A DNA stretch of 64,000 bases from Candidatus Omnitrophota bacterium (GCA_043821025.1 JBDRDF010000032.1:11261-75260); one strand, 5' to 3'; shown: positions 1,768 to 28,240, counted from the stretch's first letter. The notes: a model not told the origin generated them from the letters alone. Numbers and translations: made by a program.

Positions 1768-1848
1768 CGAGGGCTTATTTTTTGACTTGAAAACTTAAAT
1801 GGATCGGAGTAAAATAACTGCAAGACTAGGAAGGAGGGGATGGGTACT

Positions 1849-8988: not shown

Positions 8989-9120
8989 AGTTAGTGCGAA
9001 TTCGCTTCGAGTTAAATATTATATCATCAATTTTACGTTTTGCAAATTTTATAGTCCGACGTAACTTAAGTAGAACGTTCGCTTTACTTGAAATATTTTA
9101 TCTGGTATAATTTGCGTAAA

Positions 9121-10635: not shown

Positions 10636-10663
10636 TTGACATTTTCTTAGAATTGGGTATAAT
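10636..10663 (+). promoter_or_regulatory. Near-consensus sigma70 promoter, TTGACA-16-TATAAT
   Basis: TTGACA is at 10636-10641 and TATAAT at 10658-10663. It is followed by a roughly 100-nt leader ahead of the GTG start at 10767. Confidence 0.55.
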
Positions 10664-10766: not shown

Positions 10767-11474
10767 GTGAAACTAGTGAGAAAAATTGCATTACTAATTG
10801 GGTTGGTAAGTCTTGTATTCTTAGGTCTAACGGCAACAGCGCAAGCTACTATTTGGACGGACAACTTTGATGATGGAGTAGCAGATGGTTGGACCGTAAG
10901 AAAAGGTACCTGGCTTGTCGATGCTGGACAGTATAAGTCTAACGCAGGAGAGAACTATTGGACCGCCTCAACGTTTGACGCAGCGGGTTCGTCCTTCACA
11001 ACAGGGTATGGAAAAACAGACTTTAAGAGGGACTATATCGGGACTGAAACATTAGAGGGAATCCACTTTGGATATGTTCCTAACTCAACCATGTGGTTTG
11101 CAGGCGTATATGAATACGCTCCTGAAAATGCACATGTGATCTTCATCAGGCCGTACACATGGACTGGAACTGACTGGTCACCATCGGCTTCTGGGACCAA
11201 TTTGCCAATCCCTGCTCTTACTGCCGGTAGTTGGTACAACTTATTGTTGGAGGTTTCGGATACGGAAGCGAAATTGACGCTTGGAGGTAATTCCGTTACT
11301 CGTACATTAGCAGGCGTACCAGCTGGGAACATTGGGCTTGGTTCAAGCGTCGGTTGGACATCCTTTGATAATTGGGAAGCAGGGAACCAGCCAATACCAG
11401 AACCGACAAGCCTTCTTTTGTTGGGCTCCGGTTTAATTGGTTTGTTAGCTTTTAGAAAGAAAAGCAAAAGTTAA
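10767..11474 (+). CDS. PEP-CTERM-anchored secreted protein with a concanavalin/LamG-like (DUF1080-like) domain
   Basis: A GTG start is preceded by AAAGGAGGGAGG, and a signal peptide is present. It has FDDGVADGWTVRKGTWLVDAG. The C-terminus is a canonical PEP-CTERM signal (PIPEPTSLLLLGSGLIGLLAFRKKSKS*). Confidence 0.65.
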   Translation: MKLVRKIALLIGLVSLVFLGLTATAQATIWTDNFDDGVADGWTVRKGTWLVDAGQYKSNAGENYWTASTFDAAGSSFTTGYGKTDFKRDYIGTETLEGIHFGYVPNSTMWFAGVYEYAPENAHVIFIRPYTWTGTDWSPSASGTNLPIPALTAGSWYNLLLEVSDTEAKLTLGGNSVTRTLAGVPAGNIGLGSSVGWTSFDNWEAGNQPIPEPTSLLLLGSGLIGLLAFRKKSKS

Positions 11475-11593: not shown

Positions 11594-12658
11594 ATGCATA
11601 GTTTTAAATGTTATATATTTAATTTCATTTTTTTTATTATAACGCTGTCAGTAAGTTCAAACCCACTTGCGCAAGCCGATGGCTACGATAGAGCTATGTG
11701 GGTCTGGGAGCAAAGCACGCGAGACGCCCTCTATAGTCCTTCTCAAAATCAAGAGCTTCTTAATTTTTCTCAGACAAAAGACATCAAAACCTTATACCTT
11801 TACAGCGATTCATATCTGGGTATAAATGACATAATTGAACGCCCCGATTATTATCGTTACTTTATAAGTGAAGCTCATAGTCGGGGTATGCAGGTTCATG
11901 CGCTTCTCGGCTCTATGTATCTTCAGACCTGGGAATATATACTGCCGGAAAAAAGAGAAGATGCTCTTTCGATGGTGAGAAATGTCCTAGAATACAACCA
12001 AAATTCTTCGGCCTCAGAGAAATTTGATGGTTTTAATGTGGATATCGAACCCTATCTTTTGTCCGATTGGGGGGATAACCAACCTTATTATTCCGAACAG
12101 TATCTCGATGCCCTTTCAGCTCAAAAACAGCTCGTCATTAACTCTGGGCAAAATATCGAATATGGACCATGCATTCCGCGTTGGTATGATGAGGTCTCTT
12201 TAATCCAGAATATAACCTGGAACGGTGAAGTTAAGCCATTGTATCAACATTTGCAGGATATAGGTAGCTACGTAACCATAATGGATTATGTAAATGATGC
12301 GGATGGGATTGTAAATAACGCTTCAGATGAGCTTCAATACGCCGATAGTATAAATCGCAAGGTAGTCATAGGTGTAGAAACGCAAGACGTTATACCTTCT
12401 TGGACAACCTTCTACGGATTTAGCGAAGAAGAGATGGAGGCAGTGTTAAATGCTGCCGAAGGTAACTTGAAAAATTATACCTCGTACGATGGATTTGCAA
12501 TACACAGCTACGATTCTTATGCAAAGATGGCTGTAATCCCAGAACCCGGTAACATCATTTTGCTGGGATTAGGGTTAATTGGTTTGTTCGCTTTTAGAAG
12601 GAAAAGAAAAAGCATTAGTTACATTGACAAATTATATTTTTGTGGTATCTTAATATAA
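11594..12658 (+). CDS. PEP-CTERM-anchored secreted GH-A-clan-like TIM-barrel protein (GHL family paralog)
   Basis: A signal peptide is present. It has RAMWVWEQ... and a GFNVDIEPY (D-x-EP) motif. The C-terminus is VIPEPGNIILLGLGLIGLFAFRRKRKS. Confidence 0.6.
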   Translation: MHSFKCYIFNFIFFIITLSVSSNPLAQADGYDRAMWVWEQSTRDALYSPSQNQELLNFSQTKDIKTLYLYSDSYLGINDIIERPDYYRYFISEAHSRGMQVHALLGSMYLQTWEYILPEKREDALSMVRNVLEYNQNSSASEKFDGFNVDIEPYLLSDWGDNQPYYSEQYLDALSAQKQLVINSGQNIEYGPCIPRWYDEVSLIQNITWNGEVKPLYQHLQDIGSYVTIMDYVNDADGIVNNASDELQYADSINRKVVIGVETQDVIPSWTTFYGFSEEEMEAVLNAAEGNLKNYTSYDGFAIHSYDSYAKMAVIPEPGNIILLGLGLIGLFAFRRKRKSISYIDKLYFCGILI

Positions 12659-12690
12659 TAAGAGGAGGTAATAGAAATTTTTTTTGGCCA

Positions 12691-12713
12691 CTTTGTTTCA
12701 GATAGAAACGAAA
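12691..12713 (+). promoter_or_regulatory. Third copy of the TTTGTTTC-N5-GAAAC palindrome, immediately 5' of ATG 12714
   Basis: The sequence is CTTTGTTTCagataGAAACgAAA. Confidence 0.35.
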
Positions 12714-14984
12714 ATGAAGAAGACCTCTAAAACAATAGCATTATTAGTTGTTTTTATATTTATTTTATTCAATAGTTTACCCGCCTGTTTTGCAAGAGAG
12801 AAACAAATTACCCTGACCTTTTGGCAATTAAGCGCAAAAGAAGATTTTATGCGCTTAATTTTGGATGATTTTGAAAAAGAGAATCCCAATATAAAAGTTA
12901 ATATGCAAATTCTCACCTGGGATTATGGTTTTGATAAAATCGTAACTTCGATAGCAGCTGGAAATGCCCCTGATGTATGCGAATTGGGATCTACTTGGGT
13001 GCCAACGTTTTCTACCAGCGGGATATTGGTCGACTTGACCGACGATTTTAAAGATATAAAAGATAAATACTTATTCTGGGAATCTGTGAGTTATGAGGGC
13101 AAGCTATTCGGGGCTCCGTGGCTGGTAGGAACAAGGGCGTTATTTTATAACAAAGATTTATTTAAGCGTGCGGGCTTAGATCCGAATAAGCCCCCAAAGA
13201 CATGGCTTGATTTGTTGGATTATTCCAAAAAAATACACCAACCCGACAAAGGGATTTATGGATTTGGAATTTATGTTGGTGAGCCGTATGCTCCCTGGCA
13301 ACTCTTTCTCCCCTTCGCTTGGTCAAACGGTGCGGATGTCTTAAGCCCAGATTTTAAGACCTCCCTCATTACTTCGCCAGAATTTCAAGAGACGTTGGAA
13401 TTTTACAACATATTAAAGGCGTATTCAATTCATGATAGGCAGGCCCAAATAAATCAGGCATTTGCCGAAGGAAAGGTTGGCATACAAATCTCCGGCGCTT
13501 GGAACCTAATCCTCATTTCCCAAAATAACCCGGAGTTAAATTACGGCGTCGCAATAGTTCCTCGACCCGACCTAGATATAGGAAGACCCGTTTCATTTGC
13601 TGGCGGTGAAGTTTTTGTGATATTTAAACAGACCAGACAAAAGGAAGCAGCCGTTAAGCTAATGAAATTTTTATTAAGGGAAGAGAATATTATGAAGGTG
13701 GTTAAATCCCAGAAGAACGTCTTGCCATCCAGTAAGGAGAGCATCCGCCACCCCTATTTTAAAGAGCAGCCCAATCAAAGAATTTTCTTCGAACAGATGA
13801 TGAGCTCGGTGGCGGCTCCAGAACATCCAAGTTGGCCAAAGATAGAAGAGCATTTAACGAGGGCAATAGAGGAAGTCGTCCTTTTAGATGTGTCTCCAAA
13901 GGAAGCTCTGCAAAAAGCGGATTTAAAAATCAATGACATTTTGAAAAGCAAAAAGATAAAAGCGGGTCTTAGCGATAAAATCTTATCTTGGATTTTCATT
14001 GTATTTATCTTTTCAGCCGGGTTAATAATTTATTTATGGCAAAGGTTCAAGAAGAGAGAAATGGTGCCAGCAACTAAGTTAAGATTTAAGAAAATTGCCA
14101 CAGGTTATCTGTTCATCTTTCCCTGGCTTCTGCTGTTTTTTATTTTTTCGCTTTTTCCATTAATCCATTCGATAATAATCAGTTTTTCCGACTATAATCT
14201 TCTTGAGGCCAGGTTTTCTTTTATAGGTTTTAAAAATTATTTGGATGTTATGTTCGATCCTCATTTTCATAAAGCCCTTTGGCATACCATTTTCTTCGCC
14301 GTAGGGACCGTACCCTTTACGACGACTATCGCTTTATTCTGCGCTCTGTTAATAAATCGAAAATTACCTTTTAAACAACTATATCAGGCAGGCCTATTTT
14401 TGCCGGTTGTTACCTCGGTGATTGTAATTGCCAGTATATTTAGTTATGTCTATTCTCCCGATGGCTTATTGAACATCATCATCGATAGGACAGGGACATT
14501 CTTAAGTAAGTTTGGTATCCATGGCATACAGAGTCCAAAACCGAGCTGGTTATTAAATACGAAGTTAGCCTTGCCCAGCATAATGGCTATGTGCGTCTGG
14601 TCGAGCTTCGGCTATTACACCATTTTGTTTTTGGCCGGGCTTCAAGCCATTTCTCAGGAGATGTACGAAGCAAGTGCTATAGACGGCGCTAATTGGTGGG
14701 GCCAGTTTCGCTGGGTTATTTTGCCACAACTTAAGCCCATAATGTTATTTATCATCGTAATTAATAGCATCCGCTCCTTTCAGGTATTCCCGGAGATATT
14801 TGCAATGACCCAAGGAGGGCCGTTGGGCTCGACGACCACCGTCGTCTATCATCTTTATGAGATGGGGTTCCATAGATTTGAAATGGGAATGGCTTCGGCC
14901 GTTGGCTATATTTTATTTATTGTCATAATGTGCCTTACATTAGCCCAGCTTAAGATATTTAAATTTGGGGAAAGCGTAGGATAA
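12714..14984 (+). CDS. Fusion of an ABC sugar-transporter substrate-binding protein (family 1) with a MalF/UgpA-type permease
   Basis: The N-terminal roughly 430 aa form an extracellular solute-binding domain with a signal peptide. An extra TM helix follows (SWIFIVFIFSAGLIIYLW), then a 6-TM permease with an EAA loop (LAGLQAISQEMYEASAIDGANWWGQFRWVILPQ). It is a single uninterrupted ORF. The track's longer TTG start is at 12684. Confidence 0.65.
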   Translation: MKKTSKTIALLVVFIFILFNSLPACFAREKQITLTFWQLSAKEDFMRLILDDFEKENPNIKVNMQILTWDYGFDKIVTSIAAGNAPDVCELGSTWVPTFSTSGILVDLTDDFKDIKDKYLFWESVSYEGKLFGAPWLVGTRALFYNKDLFKRAGLDPNKPPKTWLDLLDYSKKIHQPDKGIYGFGIYVGEPYAPWQLFLPFAWSNGADVLSPDFKTSLITSPEFQETLEFYNILKAYSIHDRQAQINQAFAEGKVGIQISGAWNLILISQNNPELNYGVAIVPRPDLDIGRPVSFAGGEVFVIFKQTRQKEAAVKLMKFLLREENIMKVVKSQKNVLPSSKESIRHPYFKEQPNQRIFFEQMMSSVAAPEHPSWPKIEEHLTRAIEEVVLLDVSPKEALQKADLKINDILKSKKIKAGLSDKILSWIFIVFIFSAGLIIYLWQRFKKREMVPATKLRFKKIATGYLFIFPWLLLFFIFSLFPLIHSIIISFSDYNLLEARFSFIGFKNYLDVMFDPHFHKALWHTIFFAVGTVPFTTTIALFCALLINRKLPFKQLYQAGLFLPVVTSVIVIASIFSYVYSPDGLLNIIIDRTGTFLSKFGIHGIQSPKPSWLLNTKLALPSIMAMCVWSSFGYYTILFLAGLQAISQEMYEASAIDGANWWGQFRWVILPQLKPIMLFIIVINSIRSFQVFPEIFAMTQGGPLGSTTTVVYHLYEMGFHRFEMGMASAVGYILFIVIMCLTLAQLKIFKFGESVG

Positions 14985-15001
14985 TCTAAAGGGATATTTT
15001 T

Positions 15002-16192
15002 ATGAGAGAAAAGAGAAAGCTTAATATCGCAATAACCATTTTATTATTGATCATCGTGGTTTTTACTTTATTCCCACTTTTTTTAATGTTCAGCACCTCT
15101 TTAAAAGCCACAGGCACATTGGCCAAGAAAGTAACTCAAATTGTTATCGCGGATTTTAATAGGGAAGAAAATGGATATAAAAAGATAGAATTCACCGCAG
15201 ATGAGTCAGGCGATTTTATATGGAACGCGCATATCGACCAAGATATACGAAAGTTCAGTAAATTAGAATTCCTTTATAAGGCGGAAGGGGATTATAAATT
15301 TAAAATAGGTTTAATAGATACGCTGGGAAAAAGCAGTTTTTTAGAGATATCTAAATACGCGATAGAAAAAGAAACCGAGTGGCAGAAGGTAACGATACCC
15401 ATAAACGACTTTGATTTAAAAACTATTGACCCAAGGATGGTGGAAGGACTTGCTATCGTCTCCGATGCGCCCCGTTCTGGCACTATTTATCTGGACGAAA
15501 TTGTTTTGTGTATTAAAAAGGTCACTCTTATAAATTACGTCGATGTTTTAGTCAGCGGGCCATTCGGCCGTTATTTCTTTAATAGTTTTTTGATTTCTAT
15601 TTTGGTTACGTTTGGGAATATTTTGTTCTGTTCAATGGTGGCCTATTCCTTCGCAAGAAAGGAATTTCCAGGGAAGCACGCATTATTTCTTTTGATAATC
15701 GGCAGCATAATGATCCCACCTCAAGTCTTAATGGTCCCGATGTTTATACTGATGAAAAACATCCATTGGTTAAATACTTATTGGGCACTCATCATTCCAG
15801 CCTTAACTGAGCCCTTTAATATATTTTTGTTGCGTCAATATATTAGCGGCCTGCCAAAAGATTTGGAAGATGCGGCTATAATAGATGGCGCAAATGATTG
15901 GCAGGTGCTTTTCAAGGTTATTATGCCTTTGTCAAGGCCAGCGTTGGCAATAGTGGGCATTAATACTTTTATGGGAAGCTGGAATACATTTTTGTATCCA
16001 TTTTTGTTGACCAATACGACCGAGATGCGGACATTGCCGGTTGGCCTCGCTCTCTATAAGAGTTTATACAGCGTTGACTGGACTCATTTGATGGCGGCTT
16101 CCAGCATAACGGCCATACCTGTTATTATTGTATTTTTGTGCTTTCAACGACATATCATCGCTGGTCTTACCGCAGGAGCTCTTAAAGGATAG
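15002..16192 (+). CDS. MalG/UgpE-type ABC permease with a CBM11/CIA30-like domain inserted in the first extracytoplasmic loop
   Basis: After TM1, about 130 aa match the CBM-like family (EFLYKAEGDYKFKIGLIDT...EWQKVTIPINDF...GTIYLDEIVL). A permease core follows with an EAA loop (LLRQYISGLPKDLEDAAIIDGANDWQVLFKVIMPL). Confidence 0.65.
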   Translation: MREKRKLNIAITILLLIIVVFTLFPLFLMFSTSLKATGTLAKKVTQIVIADFNREENGYKKIEFTADESGDFIWNAHIDQDIRKFSKLEFLYKAEGDYKFKIGLIDTLGKSSFLEISKYAIEKETEWQKVTIPINDFDLKTIDPRMVEGLAIVSDAPRSGTIYLDEIVLCIKKVTLINYVDVLVSGPFGRYFFNSFLISILVTFGNILFCSMVAYSFARKEFPGKHALFLLIIGSIMIPPQVLMVPMFILMKNIHWLNTYWALIIPALTEPFNIFLLRQYISGLPKDLEDAAIIDGANDWQVLFKVIMPLSRPALAIVGINTFMGSWNTFLYPFLLTNTTEMRTLPVGLALYKSLYSVDWTHLMAASSITAIPVIIVFLCFQRHIIAGLTAGALKG

Positions 16193-16202
16193 CGCAATTA
16201 AA

Positions 16203-17216
16203 ATGGAAACTGGGGTAAGTTATTTCGCAAACAGGGATTTAAGGCACGTAAAAAGCGATTTAGTTGCAATGAGAAAAAATCATTGCAGTTACGTCGTACA
16301 TACATTTTCGGAAATAGACCTTCAATATTATAAAGAGAACATGCGTCAAATTGTAGCTGCAAGCGTTGAGGTTGGTTTGGAAGTGAGGATTGACCCGTGG
16401 GGAGTGGCAGGGCTATTTGGAGGGGAGGCCTATTCATATTTCGTTGCAGAGAAATTAGAGACAAGACAGATCGTATCCGATGGCAGAAGTGTGCCGCTTG
16501 CGTGCCCAAACAATCCTCAAGCTCGTCTTTTTTTGAGGCGTTGGATGGACGAAGTCATTGATTTAGGCGCCAAAATTATTTTCTGGGATGAGCCGCACTT
16601 TTATGAACCCCATTGGGTAGGCGATAAGGATGAGGAGCTTTGGGGATGTAAATGCGGTTGCTGTCAGAATTCTTTTAAAGAACGTTTCAATCACAAGATG
16701 CCCGATACTTTAACCGACGAAATAGAAGATTTTAAACAGCAGAGTTTAATCCTTTTCTTAAAGGAGTTATGTGACTATTCGAGTTCAAAGGGATTGAAAA
16801 ATAGCGTTTGTCTGTTGCCGAATGCGAAACATTTAGAGAGCGGTTTTTGGGATGAAATAGCGGAGATAAAGTCGCTCGATAATATTGGGACCGATCCTTA
16901 CTGGGTTGAGATTAAAAAAACCGAAAGGAATTTTAATCTGAACGCTTATATTAGAAAATTTTGTAAGAAAATAAATCAACTGTCGAAATCCCATAAGAAA
17001 GAAGGGCATATCTGGATTCAGAATTTTTCTATTCCATCTGGATGGGAAGGCGATATTAAGACCGTTGCGGACATCGCTTATGAGGAAGGCATTAGAGATA
17101 TAGCTGCTTGGAGCTATTACGGTACAAGTGGTATGTCAAGCAAGGCATGCGATAATCCCGAATTAGTTTGGGATGTTTTAGGAAAATCTTATAAGGAGCT
17201 ATTGCGTAAAGAGTAG
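16203..17216 (+). CDS. Cytoplasmic GH-A-clan-like TIM-barrel protein (putative glycosidase, paralog of the GHL family)
   Basis: It has no signal peptide. It has IIFWDEPHFYEP (D-EP) and an RIDPWG motif. The start is taken at ATG 16203, 10 nt after the permease stop. Confidence 0.35.
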   Translation: METGVSYFANRDLRHVKSDLVAMRKNHCSYVVHTFSEIDLQYYKENMRQIVAASVEVGLEVRIDPWGVAGLFGGEAYSYFVAEKLETRQIVSDGRSVPLACPNNPQARLFLRRWMDEVIDLGAKIIFWDEPHFYEPHWVGDKDEELWGCKCGCCQNSFKERFNHKMPDTLTDEIEDFKQQSLILFLKELCDYSSSKGLKNSVCLLPNAKHLESGFWDEIAEIKSLDNIGTDPYWVEIKKTERNFNLNAYIRKFCKKINQLSKSHKKEGHIWIQNFSIPSGWEGDIKTVADIAYEEGIRDIAAWSYYGTSGMSSKACDNPELVWDVLGKSYKELLRKE

Positions 17217-17220
17217 GGCA

Positions 17221-19596
17221 ATGAAATACGGATATTTCAGCGAAGACGGTAAGGAATATATCATCGACAGTCCGCTTACCCCGCGGCCGTGGTTTAACTA
17301 CCTTTTTAATAAAAAATATCACGCCCTTGTATCGCAAACAGGCGGCGGATTTAGTTATTATAAGGACCCCAAGGTTAACAGGATATTGCGCTACGATCAC
17401 ATCCATACCGACCGTCCGGGTAGATATCTATTTCTGCGCGATGAAACTACGAACGAATTCTGGTCAGCAAATTGGCAGCCGTTGAAATCCAAATTGGATT
17501 TTTGGCAATGCCGTCACGGTTTAGGCTATAGCGTAATCGCCTCTAAATATAAAGGAATAGGGACGGAACTGACCTATTTTGTGAATTTACAAGAGCCAGT
17601 CGAATTCTGGCTCATCAAAGTAAAAAATGATTCTAAGCGCAAGAAGATCTTAAAGATTTTTCCATTTGCGGAATTGGTTTGCGGTAATATCGAATTAGAG
17701 AATAATTATAGGAATATACTTTGTTTATATAATGAGGGGTATTTCGATAAGAAATTAAACGGCATAGTTTCTTTTAAACACCCGTTTAAAAAAGAACATA
17801 AGGTAACTTATACCTTTTTTGGTATGGATGAAAAGATAGATGCTTTCGATTGCCACAAAGGAAAGTACTTCGGCCGTTACAACGATAATCAAAATTCCGA
17901 AACCTTAAAGCGTGGCAAGTTGGGTAATAACAATGTTCGCGGCGAAGATATGGTAGCTGTCTTGGAGAAAAAATTAATTTTAAAGCCAGGTCAAAAAAAA
18001 GAGATCGTGGTTATTTTGGGCGTTGCCGAAAGCGAGCGCGATTTAAAAAGAATAGCGAAATTTAAAAATTTGAAATTTGCTAAAAATTCTTTAAAGGCAA
18101 ATAAGCTATATTGGGAAAAGGCATTGGATAAGATCATAGTTAAGACGCCGGATCCAGATTTCGATCTAATGGTGAATATCTGGGGCAGATATCAACTATA
18201 TGCCATTACTTGCTGGCGCGGCACTTCCCAATATCACGGCGGAGAAGGTGGATTGGGCTATCGCGATACCGCTCAGGACATTGAGGGGCTTTTGGCTTTG
18301 GATTTAGATTTGGCAAGAGAAAAATTAGACAAGATACTTTATTATCAATATAACTCTGGCCATGCTGTCTCCGGTTTTTCGGATGTAGAGGGTTCTTGGG
18401 ATAAGCACACAGGCAGTATTGTAATAGGAAAGGCGGATGTGGCTATTTGGTTGGTTTTTACAGTGATCTCATATCTTAAAGAGACAGGGGATTTCAAGTT
18501 CTTAAAAAAGGAATATGGCTTTCACGATGGCGGAAAAACCACTGTATATGAACATATACTAAGAGCGATAAGATATTTATATAGTCAGCGCGGAAGACAC
18601 GGCCTTCCGTTTATTAAAAAGGCTGATTGGAATGACGCTTATGACTCGGTCGGAATAAAAGGAAAAGGAGAAAGCGTCTGGCTTGGGATGGCGTTGGTTA
18701 GAGCCTGTCGGCAAATAGAATCGTTGGCTAATTTTATTGGCGATAGAAAAATAGCCGAGGAGATGAAAGAGAAATCCCGTCTCTTAACCAAAATCATTAA
18801 TAGAGCGGGATGGGATGGAAATTGGTACTTAGCAGCTTTTAACGACGAAGGATTTAAGATAGGGTCAAATAAAAACAAAGAGGGCAAAGTGCCTCTTAAT
18901 AGCCAAACCTGGGCGATTTTGAGCGAACTAGTTCCGCGGGAGAGACTTAAAAAAATCCTAAATAAGATCGACAATTATTTAAATACCGAATATGGCCCGG
19001 TATTATTTTTGCCGTCCTATACAAAATTTAATCCCGGAATCGGAAGGGTTACTGCATTCGCCGCCGGAACGAAGGAAAATGCAGCTGTCTTTTCTCATGC
19101 CTGCGCTTTTAAAATTGTGGCGGATTGTATATTAGGTCGGGGCGATAAAGCCCACGAGACATTTAAAAAATTATGTCCTATGAGTAAAGCTAAGAGCGAT
19201 CACGATAAATATAAAGCCGAGCCATACGTATGGGCAGAATATGTTATCGGGCCAGGAAATAAGGACAATTTCGGCGAAGGTGCATTTACATGGAATACCG
19301 GCACAGCACCATGGATGTTTATGGCTGCCTGCGAATGGATATTAGGGGCGAGGAGGGATTTCGGAGGGCTGCTAATCGACCCGTGCATACCAAAGCACTG
19401 GAGGAGATGTTCTATAAAAAGGCCTTTTAGAGGAGCGACCTATTTGGTCGAAATCGAGAACCCTAAAGGGGTGGAGCATGGGGTTGATAAGCTTATAGTC
19501 GACGGCGTCGAAGTAAAAGGAAATTTAATCAAGCCTCACGGCGACGGAAGAACTCATAACGTTAAGGTGATAATGGGCAATGGTAGGGATAGGTAA
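17221..19596 (+). CDS. GH94-family glycoside phosphorylase (cellobiose/cellodextrin/beta-glucan phosphorylase-like)
   Basis: It is 791 aa with an (alpha/alpha)6-barrel-type sequence (GGEGGLGYRDTAQDIEG...KAEPYVWAEYVIGPGN...LLIDPCIPKHW). The domain order is typical of cellobiose phosphorylases. Confidence 0.65.
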   Translation: MKYGYFSEDGKEYIIDSPLTPRPWFNYLFNKKYHALVSQTGGGFSYYKDPKVNRILRYDHIHTDRPGRYLFLRDETTNEFWSANWQPLKSKLDFWQCRHGLGYSVIASKYKGIGTELTYFVNLQEPVEFWLIKVKNDSKRKKILKIFPFAELVCGNIELENNYRNILCLYNEGYFDKKLNGIVSFKHPFKKEHKVTYTFFGMDEKIDAFDCHKGKYFGRYNDNQNSETLKRGKLGNNNVRGEDMVAVLEKKLILKPGQKKEIVVILGVAESERDLKRIAKFKNLKFAKNSLKANKLYWEKALDKIIVKTPDPDFDLMVNIWGRYQLYAITCWRGTSQYHGGEGGLGYRDTAQDIEGLLALDLDLAREKLDKILYYQYNSGHAVSGFSDVEGSWDKHTGSIVIGKADVAIWLVFTVISYLKETGDFKFLKKEYGFHDGGKTTVYEHILRAIRYLYSQRGRHGLPFIKKADWNDAYDSVGIKGKGESVWLGMALVRACRQIESLANFIGDRKIAEEMKEKSRLLTKIINRAGWDGNWYLAAFNDEGFKIGSNKNKEGKVPLNSQTWAILSELVPRERLKKILNKIDNYLNTEYGPVLFLPSYTKFNPGIGRVTAFAAGTKENAAVFSHACAFKIVADCILGRGDKAHETFKKLCPMSKAKSDHDKYKAEPYVWAEYVIGPGNKDNFGEGAFTWNTGTAPWMFMAACEWILGARRDFGGLLIDPCIPKHWRRCSIKRPFRGATYLVEIENPKGVEHGVDKLIVDGVEVKGNLIKPHGDGRTHNVKVIMGNGRDR

Positions 19597-20698
19597 AAAT
19601 TTTTTAAAGGAAAGTAATCGAAGACTTATCTTAAAGGTCATCTATGAGAATTCACCTATATCGAGGACTCAGATAGTCAGGCATACGAATTTGAGTAAGG
19701 TAACCGTAACGAGGATCGTCAACGAATTGATTAAAAGCGGCCTTGTATTTGAAGGCGAGCAAACCGCTTCCAGCGGAGGCAGGCCTCAGGTTCTTATAAG
19801 GTTGATTCCCGACGCAAGGTATGCTATCGGTGCTGATATTGGAATTTCAGATGTTAAAATCGGTGTGTGCGATTTAAGGTGCAATGTACTTTTTAAGTTA
19901 GAAAAAAAGATCACGCCAAAGATCGAAAGTAACAAATTGGCCGAACTTTTATTTAATTCAGTAAAAGAACTGATAAGATCATCAAATGTTCATGCCGATA
20001 AGGTACTGGGAGTGGGAATCTCTATGCCCGGGGTTATAGACGCTGATAAAGGTATAGTCAAATCATCATTTATTTTAAGCGAACGAAATGTACCATTGGA
20101 GGGAATTTTGGAAAATAAACTTAAGTTGAACGTCGTTGTCGATAGAGACGCTAACGCAGGATTATTTTACGAAAGATTTATGGGTAAAGGCAAGGATATC
20201 GATGATATACTATATATTTATACCCGTAAGAATGAAGCGGGAGAAATGGGAGTCGGCTGCAGTTTCCTTCTTGATAGTCAGATATATCGCGGGGCGGATT
20301 ATTGCGCGGGAGAGATCGGTTTAGCCCACAGCGACGATGAAAAAGAAGCGATTTTTGAGCCATTTTCTTCTTATGAATCAATCCCGTTTCGCAACGCTAT
20401 GCAAGCCGCAAAAAATGGAGATGAACAAGCAAATAAAATTTTATTCGAGGTAGGTGAAAAGATCGGACAGGGAATTTCATTTTTGGTCAATTTGCTAAAT
20501 CCGAAATTGGTGATCGTAGGCGGAGATTTTTCCATGGCGGGAGAGCCGTTTTTTAAATCGCTGGCAAATTCTCTTGAGAGGCATATTTTTGATTTTTCAA
20601 CTAAAGATATAAAGCTCGAATCCTCTTCAGCCGACGAATATTCCGGTATAAAAGCAGCTGCCTTTATGGTCATAGCTAAAACAGTGGGATATAAATGA
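19580..20698 (+). CDS. ROK-family transcriptional regulator (N-terminal wHTH plus sugar-kinase-like domain)
   Basis: It has an N-terminal HTH (ISRTQIVRHTNLSKVTVTRIVNELIKSGLV) and ROK motifs (GVGISMPGVID, GCSFLLDSQIYRGADYCAGEIG). Confidence 0.7.
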   Translation: MVGIGKNFLKESNRRLILKVIYENSPISRTQIVRHTNLSKVTVTRIVNELIKSGLVFEGEQTASSGGRPQVLIRLIPDARYAIGADIGISDVKIGVCDLRCNVLFKLEKKITPKIESNKLAELLFNSVKELIRSSNVHADKVLGVGISMPGVIDADKGIVKSSFILSERNVPLEGILENKLKLNVVVDRDANAGLFYERFMGKGKDIDDILYIYTRKNEAGEMGVGCSFLLDSQIYRGADYCAGEIGLAHSDDEKEAIFEPFSSYESIPFRNAMQAAKNGDEQANKILFEVGEKIGQGISFLVNLLNPKLVIVGGDFSMAGEPFFKSLANSLERHIFDFSTKDIKLESSSADEYSGIKAAAFMVIAKTVGYK

Positions 20699-20714
20699 GA
20701 AAGGAGGAGATGTA

Positions 20715-21335
20715 ATGAAAAGGAATATTAAATTTTGTTGTGCGCTATTAGTCTGCATGTTTTTTGTATTTAGCGCTTTTAAAACAGCTGAAGCAGAGGT
20801 AAAGTTGATAGATGATTTTAAAGGACAGGAAAACCTTTTAGGTGGGAAAAGCAATGTGTACCAGCAGGAACCTTCCAGAGCCTACCTTAGTAGAAAGGCA
20901 GTAGAACGAGATGGAAAGAGCGAGATGGTGCTTATGATCAAATACGATAAGAAGAACAAGGGTGGCTCTTATGACTCCGGAGGCTGGTGCGGCTATTATA
21001 CCTTGCTCAAGACAGATAGCACATATTTTGACATTTCAAAGTATAAAAATCTTACATTGTGGGTTAAAGGCGCCCAAGGAGATGAAAATTTTAAAGTGGG
21101 ATTAGCGGATAGGCATTGGGAGCAAGCAGATGATTCAGTCAAATCCGACCAGATAGGCGCCTATCTTAAAGCAGGGAAAATAACCACTGATTGGCAGAAG
21201 GCGACCATACCCCTAAATCTATTCTTAATCGATTTTACCGAAATGTCTTCGCTCGCTATATGTTTTGAAAGCGAGTGTTTTCCTGACGGCAGTGGCATGG
21301 GCACAGTTTATATTGACGATATAGCCTTAGAGTAA
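20715..21335 (+). CDS. Secreted CBM11/CIA30-like domain protein (paralog)
   Basis: An SD sequence (AAAGGAGGAG) and a signal peptide are present. It has GGWCGYYTLLK, LTLWVKGAQGDENFKVGLADRHW, DWQKATIPLNLF and GTVYIDDIALE. Confidence 0.55.
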   Translation: MKRNIKFCCALLVCMFFVFSAFKTAEAEVKLIDDFKGQENLLGGKSNVYQQEPSRAYLSRKAVERDGKSEMVLMIKYDKKNKGGSYDSGGWCGYYTLLKTDSTYFDISKYKNLTLWVKGAQGDENFKVGLADRHWEQADDSVKSDQIGAYLKAGKITTDWQKATIPLNLFLIDFTEMSSLAICFESECFPDGSGMGTVYIDDIALE

Positions 21336-21339
21336 ACAG

Positions 21340-23610
21340 ATGGGACTTAATTTTAAAGGGAATAAAAAAGTATTCTTCATAATAGCGATTGTAGTTATTA
21401 TTTTGTTTATAGCGGCGACATCTATATTTTTCGTTACAGAGATACAGGAATTCAAAGAGAAAATCTTTGAAATAGTAGAAAAGCCTAAAGGGGAATTATT
21501 AAAGCCAATTCTAATCGACGATTTTAACAAAGGTTTTACCAGCGGCCTATTTTATGAACGGATTAATTCCCTCGGGGGCTACCAAGGTACTTGGGCGAAG
21601 AGACCATCCTATAGCCTTATAAATAAGAGCTCAGAAGATAGAATCGGAGAAAAAGGCAAAGCATTAGTTATAGAGTTTAAGAAGGAAGCCGGTTGGTGCG
21701 GCTGGTATACATTATTAAATGGGCTTGATGCCAGCAGATATAATACGTTAAGTTTCTGGGTTAAAGGTGCCGAAGGAGGAGAAAAGTTTGATATAGGCAT
21801 TGCGGATAGCGAAATGCAAGAATTGGAGATAGATGCTGTTTATATTGGAAGTATAAATGCCTTTCTGCGGAAAGGAGTTACCAAGCGTTGGCAGGAGGTA
21901 AAGATTCCATTGTCTAGGATAGCCGGTGAGGTCAATTTTTCATCGTTAGGATCGGTTGTTTTCTGGTTTAAATATGCGGGAGCAGGCAAGATTTATGTGG
22001 ACGATATGATGTTCAGAGATGACCCGGAGATCGCAAGGATTGAAAGGTATAATACCCCAAAGGCAAGATATGCCCGCAGACATCCCCGAGCGATGTGGGT
22101 TTGGAAGACAGACCCGATAATCAATTTGATTGCGAGAGAAAAACTGTTTGAATTTTGCAGGACAGCAGCTATTAAGACCATCTATCTTTATCTTGGGGAT
22201 TTACCAGAAGACACCGAAAAGTTGAGCCAATTCTTAACGGAAGCCCATAACAAGAAAATTTTGGTAGAGGCCTTGACGGGTAACCCCGTATGGTGCCTTA
22301 GTGAAAATCACCAGCTGACCTTGAATTGGATTAAGTCGTTCCTGGAATATAATAAATTCAGGATTTCACGAGAACGGATCGATGGAATCTCTTTGGACGT
22401 CGAGCCATATTTGACATCTGAGTGGGTGCAGGATAGGGAGTCCGTTAAGCGGCAGTATATTGAAATGCTAAGGAAGTGTAGACAACTCATCGATTCCTAT
22501 GAACAGGATTTTCGCTTTGGAGTGGCAATTCCGATATTTTTCGACAAAGAGGAAGATGGACTTTTTGAACAGAGAACGTTAGAGTTAGTCGATTATTGCG
22601 CTTTAATGGATTATTATGATGACGCTCCAAATTTAATCAAAAATGCAAAAAACCATATCGCATTAGCCAAAAAGGCTGGCAAGAAGATGGTCGTGGGAGT
22701 GGAGACACAAGACCTTATCAGTATGCACCAGGGTTTAAGGCGCAATACATTTTTTGAAGAAGGTTGGGAAGCAATGGAGAAGGCGTTGTTGAAACTTATA
22801 AAGAAATATAAGAATAGCCCCGCTTTTGAAGGTGTTGCAATTCATTGTTACGAAAGCTACAGGCTTCTTCCAAAAGGAAGGAACGTCCCGACAAAGGAGA
22901 GGCCAAAAGACGTCCGTTCGTTTGCTTCCATTGGGAGAAGAGGCCGGATAATAATCGATGGACGGTTAGACGATTGGGATACCTCGCTACCTTTCCTTCT
23001 CGATAAGAAGGAAGATATAGTGTTTGGAAGCGGCGGTTGGAAAGGCAAGGAGGATTTTAGCGTCGAAGTTTTTAGCCAGTGGGATGCAGAAAATCTATAT
23101 TTCGCTTTTAAGATAAAAGATGATAAGTTAGTTCAGGAGAAAAGCGAAGGCGATATGTGGGAAGGAGATCACGTAGAGCTTTGGTTAGATGTCGACCTTC
23201 TTGGGGATTATAATGAAGCGATCAATAGCAGTGACGATTTTCAATTTGGATTTAGCCCGGGTAATTTTTCAACGCTACCCGCAGAGGTATACATTTGGAC
23301 TCCCCCCTTAGAAGATATGAATTACAAAGACTACATAGCGATAGGGTCGGCGAAGGTCGACAATGGATATATTATAGAAGCGAAAATTCCTAAAGGAGTC
23401 CTATTTTCCAAGCTGAATGAAGATAGGAAAGTTGAGGCGGAGCCGCTTAATGAATTGCCGAAGCGTTTTTCTAAGGGCATGAAGATGGGAATCGGCATAG
23501 ACCCCAGCGAGTGCGATGGCTTAAATGAACCGCAGAAACTTATGATGTCGTCGGCTAAAGAGAGGATTTGGGGCGATCCGACAACATTTATCATATTGGA
23601 GTTAAAATGA
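21340..23610 (+). CDS. Membrane-anchored multidomain protein: CBM11/CIA30-like domain + GH-A-like TIM barrel + C-terminal CBM9/DOMON-like domain
   Basis: It has an N-terminal TM helix. The CBM-like domain reads AGWCGWYTLLNG...LSFWVKGAEGGEKFDIGIADS...RWQEVKIPL...GKIYVDDMMF. The TIM barrel has RAMWVWKTD and GISLDVEPY. The C-terminus has DGRLDDWDT...SQWDAENLYFAFKIKDD...GDHVELWLD. Confidence 0.5.
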   Translation: MGLNFKGNKKVFFIIAIVVIILFIAATSIFFVTEIQEFKEKIFEIVEKPKGELLKPILIDDFNKGFTSGLFYERINSLGGYQGTWAKRPSYSLINKSSEDRIGEKGKALVIEFKKEAGWCGWYTLLNGLDASRYNTLSFWVKGAEGGEKFDIGIADSEMQELEIDAVYIGSINAFLRKGVTKRWQEVKIPLSRIAGEVNFSSLGSVVFWFKYAGAGKIYVDDMMFRDDPEIARIERYNTPKARYARRHPRAMWVWKTDPIINLIAREKLFEFCRTAAIKTIYLYLGDLPEDTEKLSQFLTEAHNKKILVEALTGNPVWCLSENHQLTLNWIKSFLEYNKFRISRERIDGISLDVEPYLTSEWVQDRESVKRQYIEMLRKCRQLIDSYEQDFRFGVAIPIFFDKEEDGLFEQRTLELVDYCALMDYYDDAPNLIKNAKNHIALAKKAGKKMVVGVETQDLISMHQGLRRNTFFEEGWEAMEKALLKLIKKYKNSPAFEGVAIHCYESYRLLPKGRNVPTKERPKDVRSFASIGRRGRIIIDGRLDDWDTSLPFLLDKKEDIVFGSGGWKGKEDFSVEVFSQWDAENLYFAFKIKDDKLVQEKSEGDMWEGDHVELWLDVDLLGDYNEAINSSDDFQFGFSPGNFSTLPAEVYIWTPPLEDMNYKDYIAIGSAKVDNGYIIEAKIPKGVLFSKLNEDRKVEAEPLNELPKRFSKGMKMGIGIDPSECDGLNEPQKLMMSSAKERIWGDPTTFIILELK

Positions 23611-24866
23611 TTAGAAAGATTACGCTGGCAGGGATATTTATTATTTTATTGTGCAGGAATAACCTCGCTTATCCGGATGGGGTGCTCCTCCAAGACATGC
23701 CGCAGCTTCCTAAAGATGCTGCTCTCGACGAAAGGGAAGATATGTTCGGATATCGAGGCAGGGTGGGCGCATTTGTTCTACCCCCTTCTAGGGTAGGGGT
23801 CTATTTTGATGATTCGGAAAATTATGTCCCTGCCGGTAAGGAGGTAAAAGAACCGACCGAAGCACCTAAGGTAGATACTGGCGTAAAAGGTGGCGTGAAA
23901 GAATTTATGCGAGAAGATGAGTCGATCAAGATAACATATGAAAAGGCAGTAGGAGATAAGACTTTTTGCGGGGCATATATTGTAATCAAAGGCGACCTGT
24001 CCAAATATAAAACTATGACTTTTATGATTAAGGGAAAAACAGGCGAGGAAACATTTGAAATCGGAATGAACGATGTCATATCCAATCGCAGAGAGGATGC
24101 GGTTATGATTGGCTCCGTCCATCGTTTTTTGTCAGACGGCATAACGAACGATTGGCAGGAAGTGAAAATTCCACTTTCGGATTTTTATGGGCCGGATTTA
24201 TCGAAAGTTTATAGTATAATTTTTCATTTTAACGAAGAGGGAAAAGGAACTTTCTGGATCGATGACATCCGTTTCCACGAAGAACTCTTGGTCGATAGAG
24301 AAAAGGAGATTCGAAAGAAGGGATACCTTCTTTTAGACGATTTCGATCACGCAACCACGGTGAACCTTTTGGCTCGGAAAACGAACACGTATAAGAAATT
24401 GCCGTCGGTTTGTCGTATGGCGTGGGATAAAAATGTCCGTTACGGAGATAAAGGGCGGTCACTAAAATTAATTTATGATAAGAAATCGGCGGGTTGGTGC
24501 GGGTATTATACCCTGCTTAACCAAATTGACGGAGAATATTACGATTTATCCGGCTATGACAGGGTATCTTTTATGGTCAGGGGAGAGAAAGGCGGTGAAT
24601 CCTTCGAGTTGGGTATGGCTGACAAAAATTGGCTTATCATCGGAGATTCTTTAAAGGCAGGGCAAATCGAGAAATATCTTCCTTCCGGAGTTACTACCGA
24701 ATGGCAAGAGGCGGTAATTCCATTGAAGGATTTTGGGATGTTGGATTTTTCGGAGATGGGTTCCTTCGTCATCAATTTTAATAAAAAACAGAGCAGCGTC
24801 GTTTATATCGATGATATTAAGTTTCATTTAACCAAATCAGAAAGAAAAGAAGGAGGGGGCCAATGA
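23606..24866 (+). CDS. Secreted protein with two tandem CBM11/CIA30-like domains
   Basis: The ATG overlaps the upstream TGA (ATGA). Domain 1 has FCGAYIVIKGD...MTFMIKGKTGEETFEIGMND...DWQEVKIPLSDF...GTFWIDDIRF. Domain 2 has AGWCGYYTLLNQ...VSFMVRGEKGGESFELGMAD...EWQEAVIPLKDF...VVYIDDIKF. Confidence 0.55.
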
Positions 24867-25528
24867 GGATTTCATTTTTCTTATTGTTTGCGATTATATG
24901 CGTAACGAGCTTTATTTTCGAAGCTTATGCTGAAGAGACTGAAGCTGAAGGATATTCTGTGGCAAAAGTCCCGGAGATGAAATTCAAAATCGATGATTTT
25001 GAAAGAAACGAGATGCTAAATTATTTGAACGGCAAGGCGAATGTGTATGTTATGGCACCTTCTCGAATTATGGTCTCTGTAAGAGAAGATGTATATCAGG
25101 GAGAGAAGACCAATGTTTTAATGCTTAAATACGATAAGAAGAACGAAGGCGGCCCTTATGAAACCGGCGGTTGGTGTGGGTATTACTCCCTTTTAAAGAA
25201 CGAGAAGAAAGGGGAATATTTCAATGCCAGCAGGTTCAAATATCTGACCTTTTTAGTTAAAGGCACCAAGGGAGACGAGAATTTTAAAGTAGGCGTAGCG
25301 GACAGACATTGGGATAAAATCGGAGATTCCCTTAAATCGGAACCGATAGGAAAATATCTGTCTGCAGGAAAACTTACTACCGATTGGCAAATTGCCAGAA
25401 TTCCTTTGGATGTCTATTTTCTCGATTACACAAGATTATCCTCGATTGCAATATGTTTTGAGGGCGATTGTTTTCCCAACGGAGCGGGAAGCGGCACCGT
25501 TTATTTCGATAATGTCGCTTTTGAATAA
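24863..25528 (+). CDS. Secreted CBM11/CIA30-like domain protein (paralog; closest to 20715..21335)
   Basis: It has GGWCGYYSLLKNE, LTFLVKGTKGDENFKVGVADRHW, DWQIARIPLDVY and GTVYFDNVAFE. Confidence 0.55.
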   Translation: MRISFFLLFAIICVTSFIFEAYAEETEAEGYSVAKVPEMKFKIDDFERNEMLNYLNGKANVYVMAPSRIMVSVREDVYQGEKTNVLMLKYDKKNEGGPYETGGWCGYYSLLKNEKKGEYFNASRFKYLTFLVKGTKGDENFKVGVADRHWDKIGDSLKSEPIGKYLSAGKLTTDWQIARIPLDVYFLDYTRLSSIAICFEGDCFPNGAGSGTVYFDNVAFE

Positions 25529-25535
25529 AAGGCAA

Positions 25536-26882
25536 ATGTTTAAAAGAATAAATATATACTTTCTTGTCCTTTTAATCACGGCAGGTTTTATATGCCAGGT
25601 ACAGGCGCAACCTGCTCATAAGACTAATCGTGCGATGTGGGTGTGGCATTCTTTGGGCCCTCAGCTCAAAGAAGAAGAAAGAAAAGAGCTCTTTTCTTTC
25701 TGCGAAAAATACGGAATAAACGAACTCTTTTTTCAACTCCAATATGTTTTTTTGGAAGACCAGCCAGAGATAAAATGTCAGATAGGATATGAGAACTTCC
25801 TGCGTTCTTTTCTAAAAGAAGCCCATAAAAGAAAAATAAAGATTCACGCATTAGATGGATATGCAGAATTTGTCCTGCGCCAAAATCATCCCCGCGTACT
25901 GGCTCAAGTAAAGGCGATACTCGAATTTAATGCACGAGGCAAACCGGATGAGAGATATGATGGCATCCATTTGGACAACGAGCCTTATCTTTTATTCGGT
26001 TTCGACGGTCCGCTTAAAGAGGAGATATTAAAACAATTTTTGGAATTAAATCAAAAATGTATGAATTTAGTTCGTGCTTCTGGACAACAAATCGTTTACG
26101 GCGTAGACATACCTTATTGGTTTGAAGAGTTAGATGAAAGGGGCGAGGTCAATTGTCCGGTAACTTTTAAGGGTTCAACCAAAGCAACAAGTTACCATAT
26201 AATAGATATAGTGGATAATGTGGGTATAATGGATTACAGGAATTTTGCGGAAGGGCCTGACGGAATAATCGGTCACGGCATAGACGAGATTAAATACGCC
26301 AGCAAGGTCGGGAAAAAGGTCTATGTAGGCGTTGAGACGTTTAGCGAAGAGCCGGTAAAGTTAATTTTTGTTTATGGATACCCCAAATACGAATTCAATA
26401 AAAGGCTTACGAGCATCGGAGGACAATTCGCTACTCGATTTAAATATAAAGGCCTACATATAGCAAAATTAAGCGACGGCGAGAATATCCACGCTGGCCT
26501 TGCAGTACCTTCGGATTTGAGCCGTCATCCGAACTTTAAAGATATTTTTTTGGAGGTTTGTAGAGTGCTCGGAAAAGATGTTTATGTTTTGGATAAGAAG
26601 GCAGTCGACGAGATGTTATTTAATACTGAAATTGCTGTTTCAAACAATATTGAATATGAAGGATTTAACGCCAAGATGATTCCATCCGATCGAGCAAATA
26701 GGGCATATCTTACTTTTGAGACATATAGGGTTACAATCCCCAAGACGACATTTGCTGGCATGGCCAAATCCGAATTGGAAAAAAATCTTGCGAAGGCGGA
26801 AGAAACATTTAAGGACTATCCTGGGTTTTATGGTTTTGCAATTCATTATTACGAGCCGTATAAGGCAATGAGAGAAGAGTAA
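25536..26882 (+). CDS. Secreted GH-A-clan-like TIM-barrel protein (GHL family paralog)
   Basis: A signal peptide is present (MFKRINIYFLVLLITAGFICQVQAQP). It has NRAMWVWHS and GIHLDNEPY. Confidence 0.5.
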   Translation: MFKRINIYFLVLLITAGFICQVQAQPAHKTNRAMWVWHSLGPQLKEEERKELFSFCEKYGINELFFQLQYVFLEDQPEIKCQIGYENFLRSFLKEAHKRKIKIHALDGYAEFVLRQNHPRVLAQVKAILEFNARGKPDERYDGIHLDNEPYLLFGFDGPLKEEILKQFLELNQKCMNLVRASGQQIVYGVDIPYWFEELDERGEVNCPVTFKGSTKATSYHIIDIVDNVGIMDYRNFAEGPDGIIGHGIDEIKYASKVGKKVYVGVETFSEEPVKLIFVYGYPKYEFNKRLTSIGGQFATRFKYKGLHIAKLSDGENIHAGLAVPSDLSRHPNFKDIFLEVCRVLGKDVYVLDKKAVDEMLFNTEIAVSNNIEYEGFNAKMIPSDRANRAYLTFETYRVTIPKTTFAGMAKSELEKNLAKAEETFKDYPGFYGFAIHYYEPYKAMREE

Positions 26883-28239: not shown

Positions 28240-28240
28240 A

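Follow-up and report, generated by a model that had tools for sequence, protein, structure and literature searches.

Two candidate glycosidase families of TIM-barrel fold in a conserved GH94 phosphorylase operon of Candidatus Omnitrophota

What do the TIM-barrel proteins encoded in one compact gene cluster of a Candidatus Omnitrophota bacterium do, and do they form a single family? The cluster lies in a stretch of 64,000 nucleotides of a metagenome-assembled genome (GCA_043821025.1 JBDRDF010000032.1:11261-75260), which we call the window and in whose coordinates all positions are given. A preliminary description of this DNA had named four open reading frames (ORFs) as paralogous barrels resembling glycoside hydrolase clan GH-A, likely glycosidases that could supply oligosaccharides to a GH94 phosphorylase encoded among them. 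All four ORFs are present as described, and we refer to their products as proteins A, B, C and D (Table 1). They comprise three paralogs and one unrelated barrel of similar fold. On balance, we lean toward an explanation in which the genes from 10767 to 30588 constitute one tightly packed glycan-utilization operon, with an extracellular depolymerase set that would feed a phosphorolytic pathway and would act on a glycan containing N-acetylglucosamine (GlcNAc) more likely than on β-glucan or mannan. From homology, folds, conserved residues and synteny we infer every enzymatic activity, substrate and stereochemical outcome discussed here.

Is the paralogy real? Protein A, the middle domain of C and protein D are 30-34% identical over 250-330 aa (BLASTP, E 1e-31 to 1e-42). 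All three carry the RAMWVW string reported for the secreted members (A aa 33-38, C aa 250-255, D aa 32-37), and the profile of their family matches exactly three proteins of the window, while the profile of the B family matches exactly one. Comparison of B with A, C and D gives E>1 in BLASTP, and hhalign of the two family profiles (probability 1.3%, E 0.04) rejects homology of the A and B families. The motifs that had been read as one shared signature, (D/N)-x-EP, are all found (NVDIEPY at A aa 148-154, SLDVEPY at C aa 351-357, HLDNEPY at D aa 145-151 and FWDEPHF at B aa 127-133). They divide along the same line: A, C and D have D-[IVN]-E-P, whereas B has W-D-E-P, with the Asp adjacent to the Glu. 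The proposal of four paralogs is therefore reduced to A, C and D.

Do these barrels belong to a described family? No Pfam or NCBIfam model covers the barrel in A, B, C or D, in a search that took in GH5, GH26, GH113, GHL5/6/10/13/15, DUF4015, DUF4434 and DUF4838. Apart from scattered sub-threshold matches, no Pfam or NCBIfam barrel family was matched at E<=1 by 42 aligned A-family members or by 35 members of the B family, so the suggested assignment to GHL/DUF, GH5, GH26 or GH113 families did not survive. A PDB sequence search with the single sequences of A, B and D gave no match. The A/C/D family is large. A word-indexed search returned 68 relatives, all unnamed or labeled 'hypothetical' and many with PEP-CTERM or T9SS sorting tails, and a profile search of 1.84 billion cluster representatives returned 5,212 at E<=1e-3 and 1,665 at E<=1e-30. 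At 50% identity the family comprises ~5,200 clusters, and its barrels are often embedded in large multidomain proteins. GTDB species representatives have it at no fewer than 566 loci, many of them in cultured Paenibacillus, Nonomuraea, Streptosporangium and Kribbella. The B family has at least 258 homologs. Orthologs of C and D are 49-51% identical across loci, while A, C and D share only 30-34% with one another, which argues that the paralogs are old, maintained subfamilies.

What kind of enzyme could A, C and D be? AlphaFold2, run on the family alignment, predicts the core of A confidently as a (β/α)8 barrel with eight β/α units (pLDDT 97.1), in agreement with the TIM-barrel description. Its nearest folds (figures as given) are Cwp19 (21.6), GH5 mannanases (~19), the hydrolase domain of PgaB (18.9), GH1 enzymes and many GH18 chitinases (~17-18.5); Foldseek likewise put Cwp19 at the top, with mainly GH18 entries and PgaB after it. 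Conservation was counted over 119 diverse near-full-length cluster representatives, in A-core numbering, to which 28 is added for protein A. In the D-x-E motif after β4, D122 is present in 119/119 and E124 in 118/119. Other conserved residues are W10 (118/119), P125 (114/119), Y204 and H276 (113/119 each), M202 and T235 (112/119 each) and E234 (111/119). In the model, the conserved residues sit at the C-terminal ends of β1, β4, β6, β7 and β8; E124 directly follows β4 (residues 118-121), and the Glu corresponding to E234 closes β7 (residues 228-234) in A, C and D.

As modeled, the β4 Glu, the β6 Tyr and the β7-end Glu would reproduce the arrangement of clan GH-A, and to this extent the claimed '4/7' likeness to that clan holds for A, C and D. 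Two details, as judged from the alignment, set them apart from it. In place of Asn, the residue before the putative acid/base is Ile or Val in 105/119 representatives (Asn in 12/119 and, among the window proteins, in D only), and an invariant Asp stands two residues upstream of it, which makes the motif D-x-E rather than N-E-P. We assign E124 (Glu152 of A) as the putative general acid/base with good confidence. Of D122, E124 and E234, the last is the least conserved, being Asn, Asp or Lys in 8/119, whereas the D-x-E pair is essentially invariant; either these representatives lack activity or another group may serve as nucleophile in place of the β7 Glu. There are two candidates for the second catalytic element: the β7 Glu (Glu262 of A), which would act in a retaining double displacement, or the acetamido group of the substrate, which would be polarized by D122 (Asp150 of A) as in the D-x-E of GH18.

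How close is the family to GH18 itself? GH18 enzymes have the signature DGxDxDxE and no catalytic carboxylate at the β7 position. The β4 motif of A, C and D, D-G-x-[HNQ]-x-D-[IV]-E, resembles this signature but lacks its middle Asp, and unlike GH18 the family keeps the β7 Glu. GH18 entries are numerous among the fold matches of A and reach the highest identities there (13-16%), and a gene context of N-acetylhexosamine (HexNAc) metabolism would fit GH18 too; the GH18 model PF00704 is matched by 1/42 A-family members, at E 0.18. At the sequence level, searches gave no sign of membership in clan GH-A, whether GH5 mannanases and cellulases, GH1 or GH42. A, C and D may thus act like clan GH-A or GH18 enzymes, yet by the tests run they belong to neither. 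They do not match the GHL10 model PF02638, the family of Cwp19 from Clostridioides difficile. In Cwp19, β4 is followed by Asp-Asp, and Gly takes the β7 position (PMC5765458); in this it resembles B and not A, C and D. Two recent TIM-barrel families of amino-sugar polymers were considered and rejected as well: GH191/GH114, with an Asp/Glu spacing of ~69 residues, gave no sequence match, and GH185/DUF4838 does not match.

Has a member of this family been seen elsewhere? The A/C/D profile matches one solved protein, over the whole barrel and at E=4e-24: PDB 10yv, 'Putative GH97 from Cellulomonas fimi', of 275 aa, which is absent from both fold-search libraries (Foldseek library cut-off April 2026). 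Its AMWLW, DVEPW, ET and HY elements are all in register with those of A, C and D, which places it, by its sequence, in their family; unlike the window proteins it is single-domain and actinobacterial, with no carbohydrate-binding modules (CBMs) and no anchor. The GH97 label finds no support here: Pfam GH97 (PF10566) is matched by no family member, and the listed fold matches include none with a GH97 description. Literature searches found no publication on 10YV or on C. fimi together with GH97, and nothing fitting the family under GH192-197. With a relative's structure on deposit, work on the A/C/D family may already be in progress, or the family may have a CAZy number.

Outside the barrel, A and D have features of their own. 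The description of A as a PEP-CTERM protein is borne out by matches to PF07589 (E=1.4e-5) and TIGR02595 (E 6.9e-6), both past threshold, and its C-terminus shows a PEP motif, a hydrophobic helix and a basic tail (VIPEPGNIILLGLGLIGLFAFRRKRK). D has an insertion of ~128 aa (nt ~26343..26735) between β7 (GVET, aa 265-268) and a conserved TTF (aa 404-406). The insertion (aa ~269-403) has no Pfam match and is also present in the D-like ortholog of locus L088 (loci in other genomes carry L numbers). It may cap the active site, in which case D could be exo- rather than endo-acting.

What, then, is protein B? It has no signal peptide, its β1 begins at residue 2 and its start at 16203 agrees with homologs, all as expected for the cytoplasmic protein that had been proposed. 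AlphaFold2 again confidently predicts a (β/α)8 barrel with eight β/α units (pLDDT 95.6); the nearest folds (figures as given) are GH42 β-galactosidases (26.8), a GH35 β-1,2-glucosyltransferase (26.7), a GH35 exo-β-glucosaminidase (25.7), Cwp19 and GH164. In the B family E37, D39, D64, E75, the segment W128-D129-E130-P131-H132, D231 and several Trp are conserved, and D129, E130 and four Cys (C101, C149, C151, C154) are invariant in 35/35 sequences. The Cys motif aligns in HMMER with HYC...RCYCDDC of the GH42 β-galactosidase 6lvw; in GH42 these cysteines form a zinc site. B therefore shares with GH42 the barrel fold, the acid/base Glu after β4 and a Cys4 zinc-type site, and it probably descends from a GH42-type barrel. 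It differs in consisting of a barrel only (337 aa as against ~650-700 aa), with no trimerization or C-terminal domains, in giving no Pfam GH42 match, in having Asp for Asn before the Glu, and in the absence of a nucleophile from the end of β7, where 35 members have Gln or Leu followed by Asn, Ala or Gly and no Glu or Asp.

The nearest folds of both barrels are almost all glycoside hydrolases, which agrees with the view of them as likely glycosidases; the missing β7 nucleophile of B is a feature that the preliminary description had itself named as contrary to that view. An adjacent Asp-Glu pair is the signature of the substrate-assisted GH20 hexosaminidases (PMC10570127). B resembles GH20 in having this pair after β4 and no enzymic nucleophile, a likeness of mechanism and not of membership; the GH20 model PF00728 has no match in the B family. 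Our preferred reading of these residues is that B would be a GH42-like barrel turned cytoplasmic β-N-acetylhexosaminidase-type enzyme.

Which disaccharide would the GH94 enzyme cleave? The catalytic ADWND is conserved, and PF06165 is matched at E 5.9e-68 in addition to the PF17167 match in Table 1. Six orthologs (window, L085, L086, L088, L089, L090) form a clade with common differences from cellobiose phosphorylase. After ADWND, the clade has an 11-residue loop where C. thermocellum cellobiose phosphorylase has one of 26 residues, and in the segment G-E-I-S-T-Y...H-N of the latter the Glu, Tyr and Asn, which we take to be residues 649, 653 and 667, give way to Arg, Phe and Ala in the clade. 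The string IGRVT[AS]FA.GTKENAA.FSHACAF is conserved throughout the clade; the regions concerned are aa ~468-490 and ~597-640. Arg-609 of cellobionic acid phosphorylase presumably occupies the position of the clade Arg, and by this analogy the Arg is a hint of an acidic or otherwise different acceptor. No residues that discriminate GH94 specificities were found in the reviews consulted. Acholetin phosphorylase was rejected as the identity of the enzyme, its closest PDB homolog having been 23% identical at publication, as against E 1e-145 to cellobiose phosphorylase here.

Two further observations concern GH94. The entry 8bou, named 'N,N'-diacetylchitobiose phosphorylase', has Gln (IFSQSQ) at the position of the F[CS]H His that the window enzyme shares with C. 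thermocellum cellobiose phosphorylase and that we assume binds phosphate; the name of the entry may not reflect a tested activity. At the start of the window (2..628) lie the C-terminal 208 aa of a second GH94 protein, 40% identical to the enzyme at 17221 and with other acceptor-site residues (IGYITRYAPGVRENGG), so that the genome has two GH94 loci ~17 kb apart. It is followed by an aspartyl-protease-like protein (625..1767) and another CBM11-like secreted protein (1840..2433).

Is the arrangement of these genes conserved? The module of ABC importer, B, GH94 and CBM30-barrel-CBM9 proteins recurs in other Omnitrophota-type loci. L085 has NagA, NagB, the fusion of binding protein and permease (67% identity), the second permease (74%), B (63%) and GH94 (74%). 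In L088 the order is NagB, Pta/AckA, three other genes, NagA, fusion, permease, B, GH94, ROK, three barrel paralogs and CBM30 proteins. L086, L089 and L090 have B, GH94, one or more CBM30+barrel+CBM9 proteins and CBM30 proteins, and the architecture of protein C has orthologs in all three. The suggested link between the barrels and the GH94 phosphorylase is thereby strengthened for the C/D type, for which synteny is kept in four other loci. In both loci that show the region (L085, L088), NagA lies directly 5' of the orthologous transporter, with NagB adjacent or nearby.

Beyond these loci, neighborhoods were counted at the best 80 of at least 566 genome loci. The barrel lies inside a large multidomain protein in 58/80, mainly in Paenibacillus and Streptosporangiales, and the neighbors include ABC permeases (33-47 loci), a binding protein (26), NagA (17), NagB (15) and GH20 (14). 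In Paenibacillus the barrel protein is flanked by importer and catabolic genes. L054 has the barrel flanked by Big_7, cadherin-like and CBM96 domains, with a GH3 gene also present, and an Ignavibacteriae homolog with a T9SS tail stands among two GH20 genes, NagA, NagB, ROK and a TonB receptor. As a separate observation, an A-family gene with a signal peptide in Kribbella sp. (L001 7202..11023) closes a compact run of four genes, the other three of which encode GFO/IDH/MocA oxidoreductases, and such oxidoreductase genes also adjoin the family in Ignavibacteriae (L002) and at some Paenibacillus loci; these neighbors might point to an oxidative step on the products.

How could the parts work together? 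In our best explanation, C, D and probably A would be glycosidases outside the cell or on its surface, A held by its PEP-CTERM, C by a membrane anchor and equipped with CBM30-like and CBM9 domains, and D secreted. They would cut a β-linked polysaccharide, most likely GlcNAc-containing (chitin-like or cell-wall-derived), to oligosaccharides, while the CBM30-only proteins would hold the polymer at the cell surface. The ABC importer, with its binding protein fused to a permease, would bring the oligosaccharides into the cytoplasm. There B, which keeps the acid/base Glu and has lost the β7 nucleophile, would trim them by substrate-assisted catalysis of the GH20 type, and GH94 would phosphorolyze the disaccharide to a sugar-1-phosphate and a free sugar. 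The two PGM/PMM mutases would convert the sugar-1-phosphate, and PHO4 would supply phosphate.

This scheme has a precedent at the system level. The (GlcNAc)2 operon of Vibrio combines an ABC importer, a cytoplasmic hexosaminidase, a GH94 chitobiose phosphorylase, a kinase and a PGM/PMM-type GlcNAc-1-phosphate mutase. The window operon resembles it in its importer, cytoplasmic barrel enzyme, GH94, ROK protein and PGM/PMM mutases. It differs in that an orphan family, not GH20, occupies the hexosaminidase slot, the enzymes outside the cell do not belong to GH18, binding protein and permease form one polypeptide, and the GH94 enzyme comes from a separate clade.

Why propose a HexNAc-containing glycan as the substrate? 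We consider it probable because of the NagA and NagB genes in L085 and L088, the GH20, NagA and NagB neighbors in other phyla, the D-E signature of B and the differences of the GH94 clade; we give β-glucan a much smaller chance and leave the rest to other substrates. The gene neighborhoods thus point away from the β-glucans and mannans first suggested. Several observations weigh against our explanation. NagA and NagB were searched for in the 64-kb window and not found. The closest orthologs of A (49-55% identity; L083, L084) adjoin neither GH94 nor transporters. The nearest solved relatives of the solute-binding domain bind gluco-, manno- or malto-oligosaccharides, and characterized CBM30, CBM11 and CBM9 members bind cellulose, β-glucans or xylan. 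At 490 bits (E 1.3e-145), the C. thermocellum cellobiose phosphorylase is the closest solved match to the GH94 enzyme, slightly ahead of chitobiose phosphorylases (453 and 441). Finally, the invariant E282 of B, nine residues after β7, could be a displaced nucleophile.

A rival that keeps to the substrate first suggested is a cellulose or β-glucan (cellodextrin) system, which we judge unlikely. A, C and D would then form a new family of glucanases with β-1,4 or mixed-linkage specificity, GH94 would be a cellobiose phosphorylase and B a cytoplasmic β-glucosidase-like enzyme, and the mutases would turn Glc-1-P into Glc-6-P. The GH94 match just given would be expected, as would the CBM30, CBM11 and CBM9 Pfam matches on C and the small secreted proteins, the GH5 enzymes among the nearest folds of A and the two PGM/PMM genes in the operon. 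This fits poorly with the NagA and NagB genes embedded in the orthologous operons of L085 and L088, and with a GH94 clade that lacks the loop and three acceptor- or donor-site residues of cellobiose phosphorylase. Nor would it explain why B lacks a β7 nucleophile and has Asp, not Asn, before its acid/base, or why the barrel family is tied to GH20, NagA and NagB in two other phyla.

A more far-reaching version of the HexNAc reading strikes us as distinctly improbable. Here A/C/D and B would found two new glycoside hydrolase families in an undescribed phosphorolytic pathway, together with the GH94 clade that has Arg in its acceptor site, and the pathway would harvest a HexNAc-containing, possibly acidic, cell-wall glycan of other microbes. 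In this proposal, A, C and D would combine the GH18-like D-x-E with the GH-A-like β7 Glu, and B would be a GH42 descendant with substrate-assisted catalysis.

Another proposal, to which we give very little weight, is that the substrate is the bacterial cell wall of other cells, peptidoglycan or a related glycan of HexNAc and acidic sugars. A, C and D would act like TIM-barrel muramidases, glucosaminidases or lytic transglycosylases, and the GH94 clade would phosphorolyze a GlcNAc-containing disaccharide with a carboxylate on its reducing sugar. The Arg that takes the place of the acceptor-site Glu of cellobiose phosphorylase in 6/6 clade members would suit such a sugar, and 4/35 members of the B family give MupG_N (6-phospho-N-acetylmuramidase) matches. 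These are below significance (best E 0.007), L085, L086 and L088-L090 showed no MurQ-type etherase, amidase or peptidase, and Cwp19 lacks the β7 Glu that A, C and D keep (PMC5765458).

Could A, and possibly the whole barrel family, have no part in nutrient acquisition and instead process exopolysaccharide or surface glycan that the cell makes itself, as the hydrolases PgaB, PelA and Sph3 do, so that its place before the transporter would be incidental? The PEP-CTERM/exosortase system is linked to exopolysaccharide production, and A has such an anchor; PgaB is among the top fold matches, and the A ortholog of L084 has a sugar transferase, a polysaccharide deacetylase and an epimerase in its vicinity. 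We rate this as a faint prospect, given that A is separated from the transporter gene by only 25 nt with no terminator between, that the GH94 module of four other loci regularly includes C- and D-type paralogs, and that the Paenibacillus barrel protein keeps importer and catabolic genes on its flanks. The idea that B is an inverting glycoside phosphorylase of the GH112 type, with phosphate in the place of the missing nucleophile and two sugar-1-phosphates for the two mutases, draws on the GH42-like barrel with no β7 carboxylate and on the PGM/PMM paralogs and phosphate transporter of the operon, but likewise carries very little weight with us, with so few conserved basic residues for phosphate (R11, H33 and H132 only) and a PGM/PMM pair that lies outside the conserved module in L088-L090.

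The layout of the cluster is consistent with a single transcription unit under our preferred explanation. All its genes are on the + strand, in the order of Table 1, and are separated by gaps of <=25 nt or overlap, the sole exception being 119 nt before A. A sigma-70 consensus (TTGACA-16-TATAAT, 12/12 match) stands at 10636..10663, ~100 nt 5' of the first PEP-CTERM gene, and no other site in the 20-kb cluster matches in full; a promoter and terminator scan of the cluster gave counts no higher than in shuffles and no terminator excess. A 489-aa ORF just 5' of the cluster (9088..10557) is without a Pfam match, and beyond the other end, at 31756..32382, there is a second PHO4-like ORF, shorter than the first.

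The binding-protein/permease fusion is kept in the orthologous operons (L085 6550..8799, L088 6396..8615). In the second permease, an insert of ~140 aa between the first transmembrane helix and the core (15002..15640) gives a weak CBM11/CBM30 match (E ~1e-3) and has the pattern W..V.IP..DF...IY.D.I of the CBM-only proteins. These small secreted proteins, with CBM30/CBM11 only (20715..21335, 23568..24866, 24863..25528 and 1840..2433), could be surface glycan-capture proteins, and CBM30-only proteins adjoin GH94 in L086, L088, L089 and L090 too.

Table 1. Genes and features of the cluster, in window coordinates.
Feature	Position (nt)	Strand	Remarks
Second PEP-CTERM protein, first gene of the cluster	10767..11474	+	Pfam/NCBIfam
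Protein A, 354 aa	11594..12658	+	signal peptide aa 1-28; (β/α)8 barrel aa ~29-313; PEP-CTERM anchor aa 315-337 (nt 12536..12604)
Protein A, key residues	12035..12055 (motif); 12371..12382 (GVET)		D150-I-E152 in the motif; Y232; E262 in GVET; H304
ABC sugar importer	12684..16192	+	two genes
Solute-binding protein (SBP_bac_1) fused to permease, 766 aa	12684..14984	+	
Second permease	15002..16192	+	weakly CBM11/30-like periplasmic insert
Protein B, 337 aa, cytoplasmic	16203..17216	+	GH42/GH35-like (β/α)8 barrel, separate orphan family
Protein B, features	16581..16601 (motif); 17013..17027 (β7 end)		D129-E130 after β4; Q273-N274 at β7 end; invariant E282
Protein B, Cys4 zinc-type motif	16503..16505 and 16647..16664		C101/C149/C151/C154
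GH94 glycoside phosphorylase, 791 aa	17221..19596	+	distinct clade; PF17167 E=1.8e-105
ROK-family protein	19580..20698	+	N-terminal winged helix (NagC/Mlc/XylR-type regulator)
Secreted CBM30/CBM11-like protein	20715..21335	+	no further domain
Protein C, 756 aa	21340..23610	+	N-terminal membrane anchor; CBM30/CBM11-like domain aa ~59-225; CBM9 aa 569-756 (nt ~23044..23607)
Protein C, orphan-family barrel	~22060..22890		aa ~241-517; D353-V-E355, E455
Secreted protein with two CBM30 domains	23568..24866 (ORF)	+	probable ATG 23607
Secreted CBM30-like protein	24863..25528	+	
Protein D, 448 aa	25536..26882	+	signal peptide; orphan-family barrel; D147-N-E149, E267
PGM/PMM-family sugar-phosphate mutase, first of tandem pair	26893..28239	+	
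PGM/PMM-family sugar-phosphate mutase, second of tandem pair	28214..29617 (ORF)	+	probable ATG 28241
PHO4-family phosphate transporter, last gene of the cluster	29614..30588	+	

What does the locus add to what is known of these organisms and enzymes? A/C/D and B are, on the comparisons made here, candidate new glycosidase families in a very well-known superfamily and in a conserved operon; no new kind of system is proposed. Both families are invisible to Pfam and NCBIfam, and in NCBI A goes by 'PEP-CTERM sorting domain-containing protein' and C by 'sugar-binding protein', while B, D and the GH94 enzyme are labeled hypothetical. The A/C/D family is common in cultured Paenibacillus and actinomycetes, while the B family accompanies GH94 phosphorylases in Omnitrophota. 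The analysis yields predictions at the level of single residues, D150, E152 and E262 in A and D129 and E130 in B. If B acts as proposed, it would exemplify the loss of the nucleophile from a GH42-type barrel. If both groups are glycosidases, two families would be added to the catalogue of carbohydrate-active enzymes, and a conserved operon of a poorly understood candidate phylum would gain a function.

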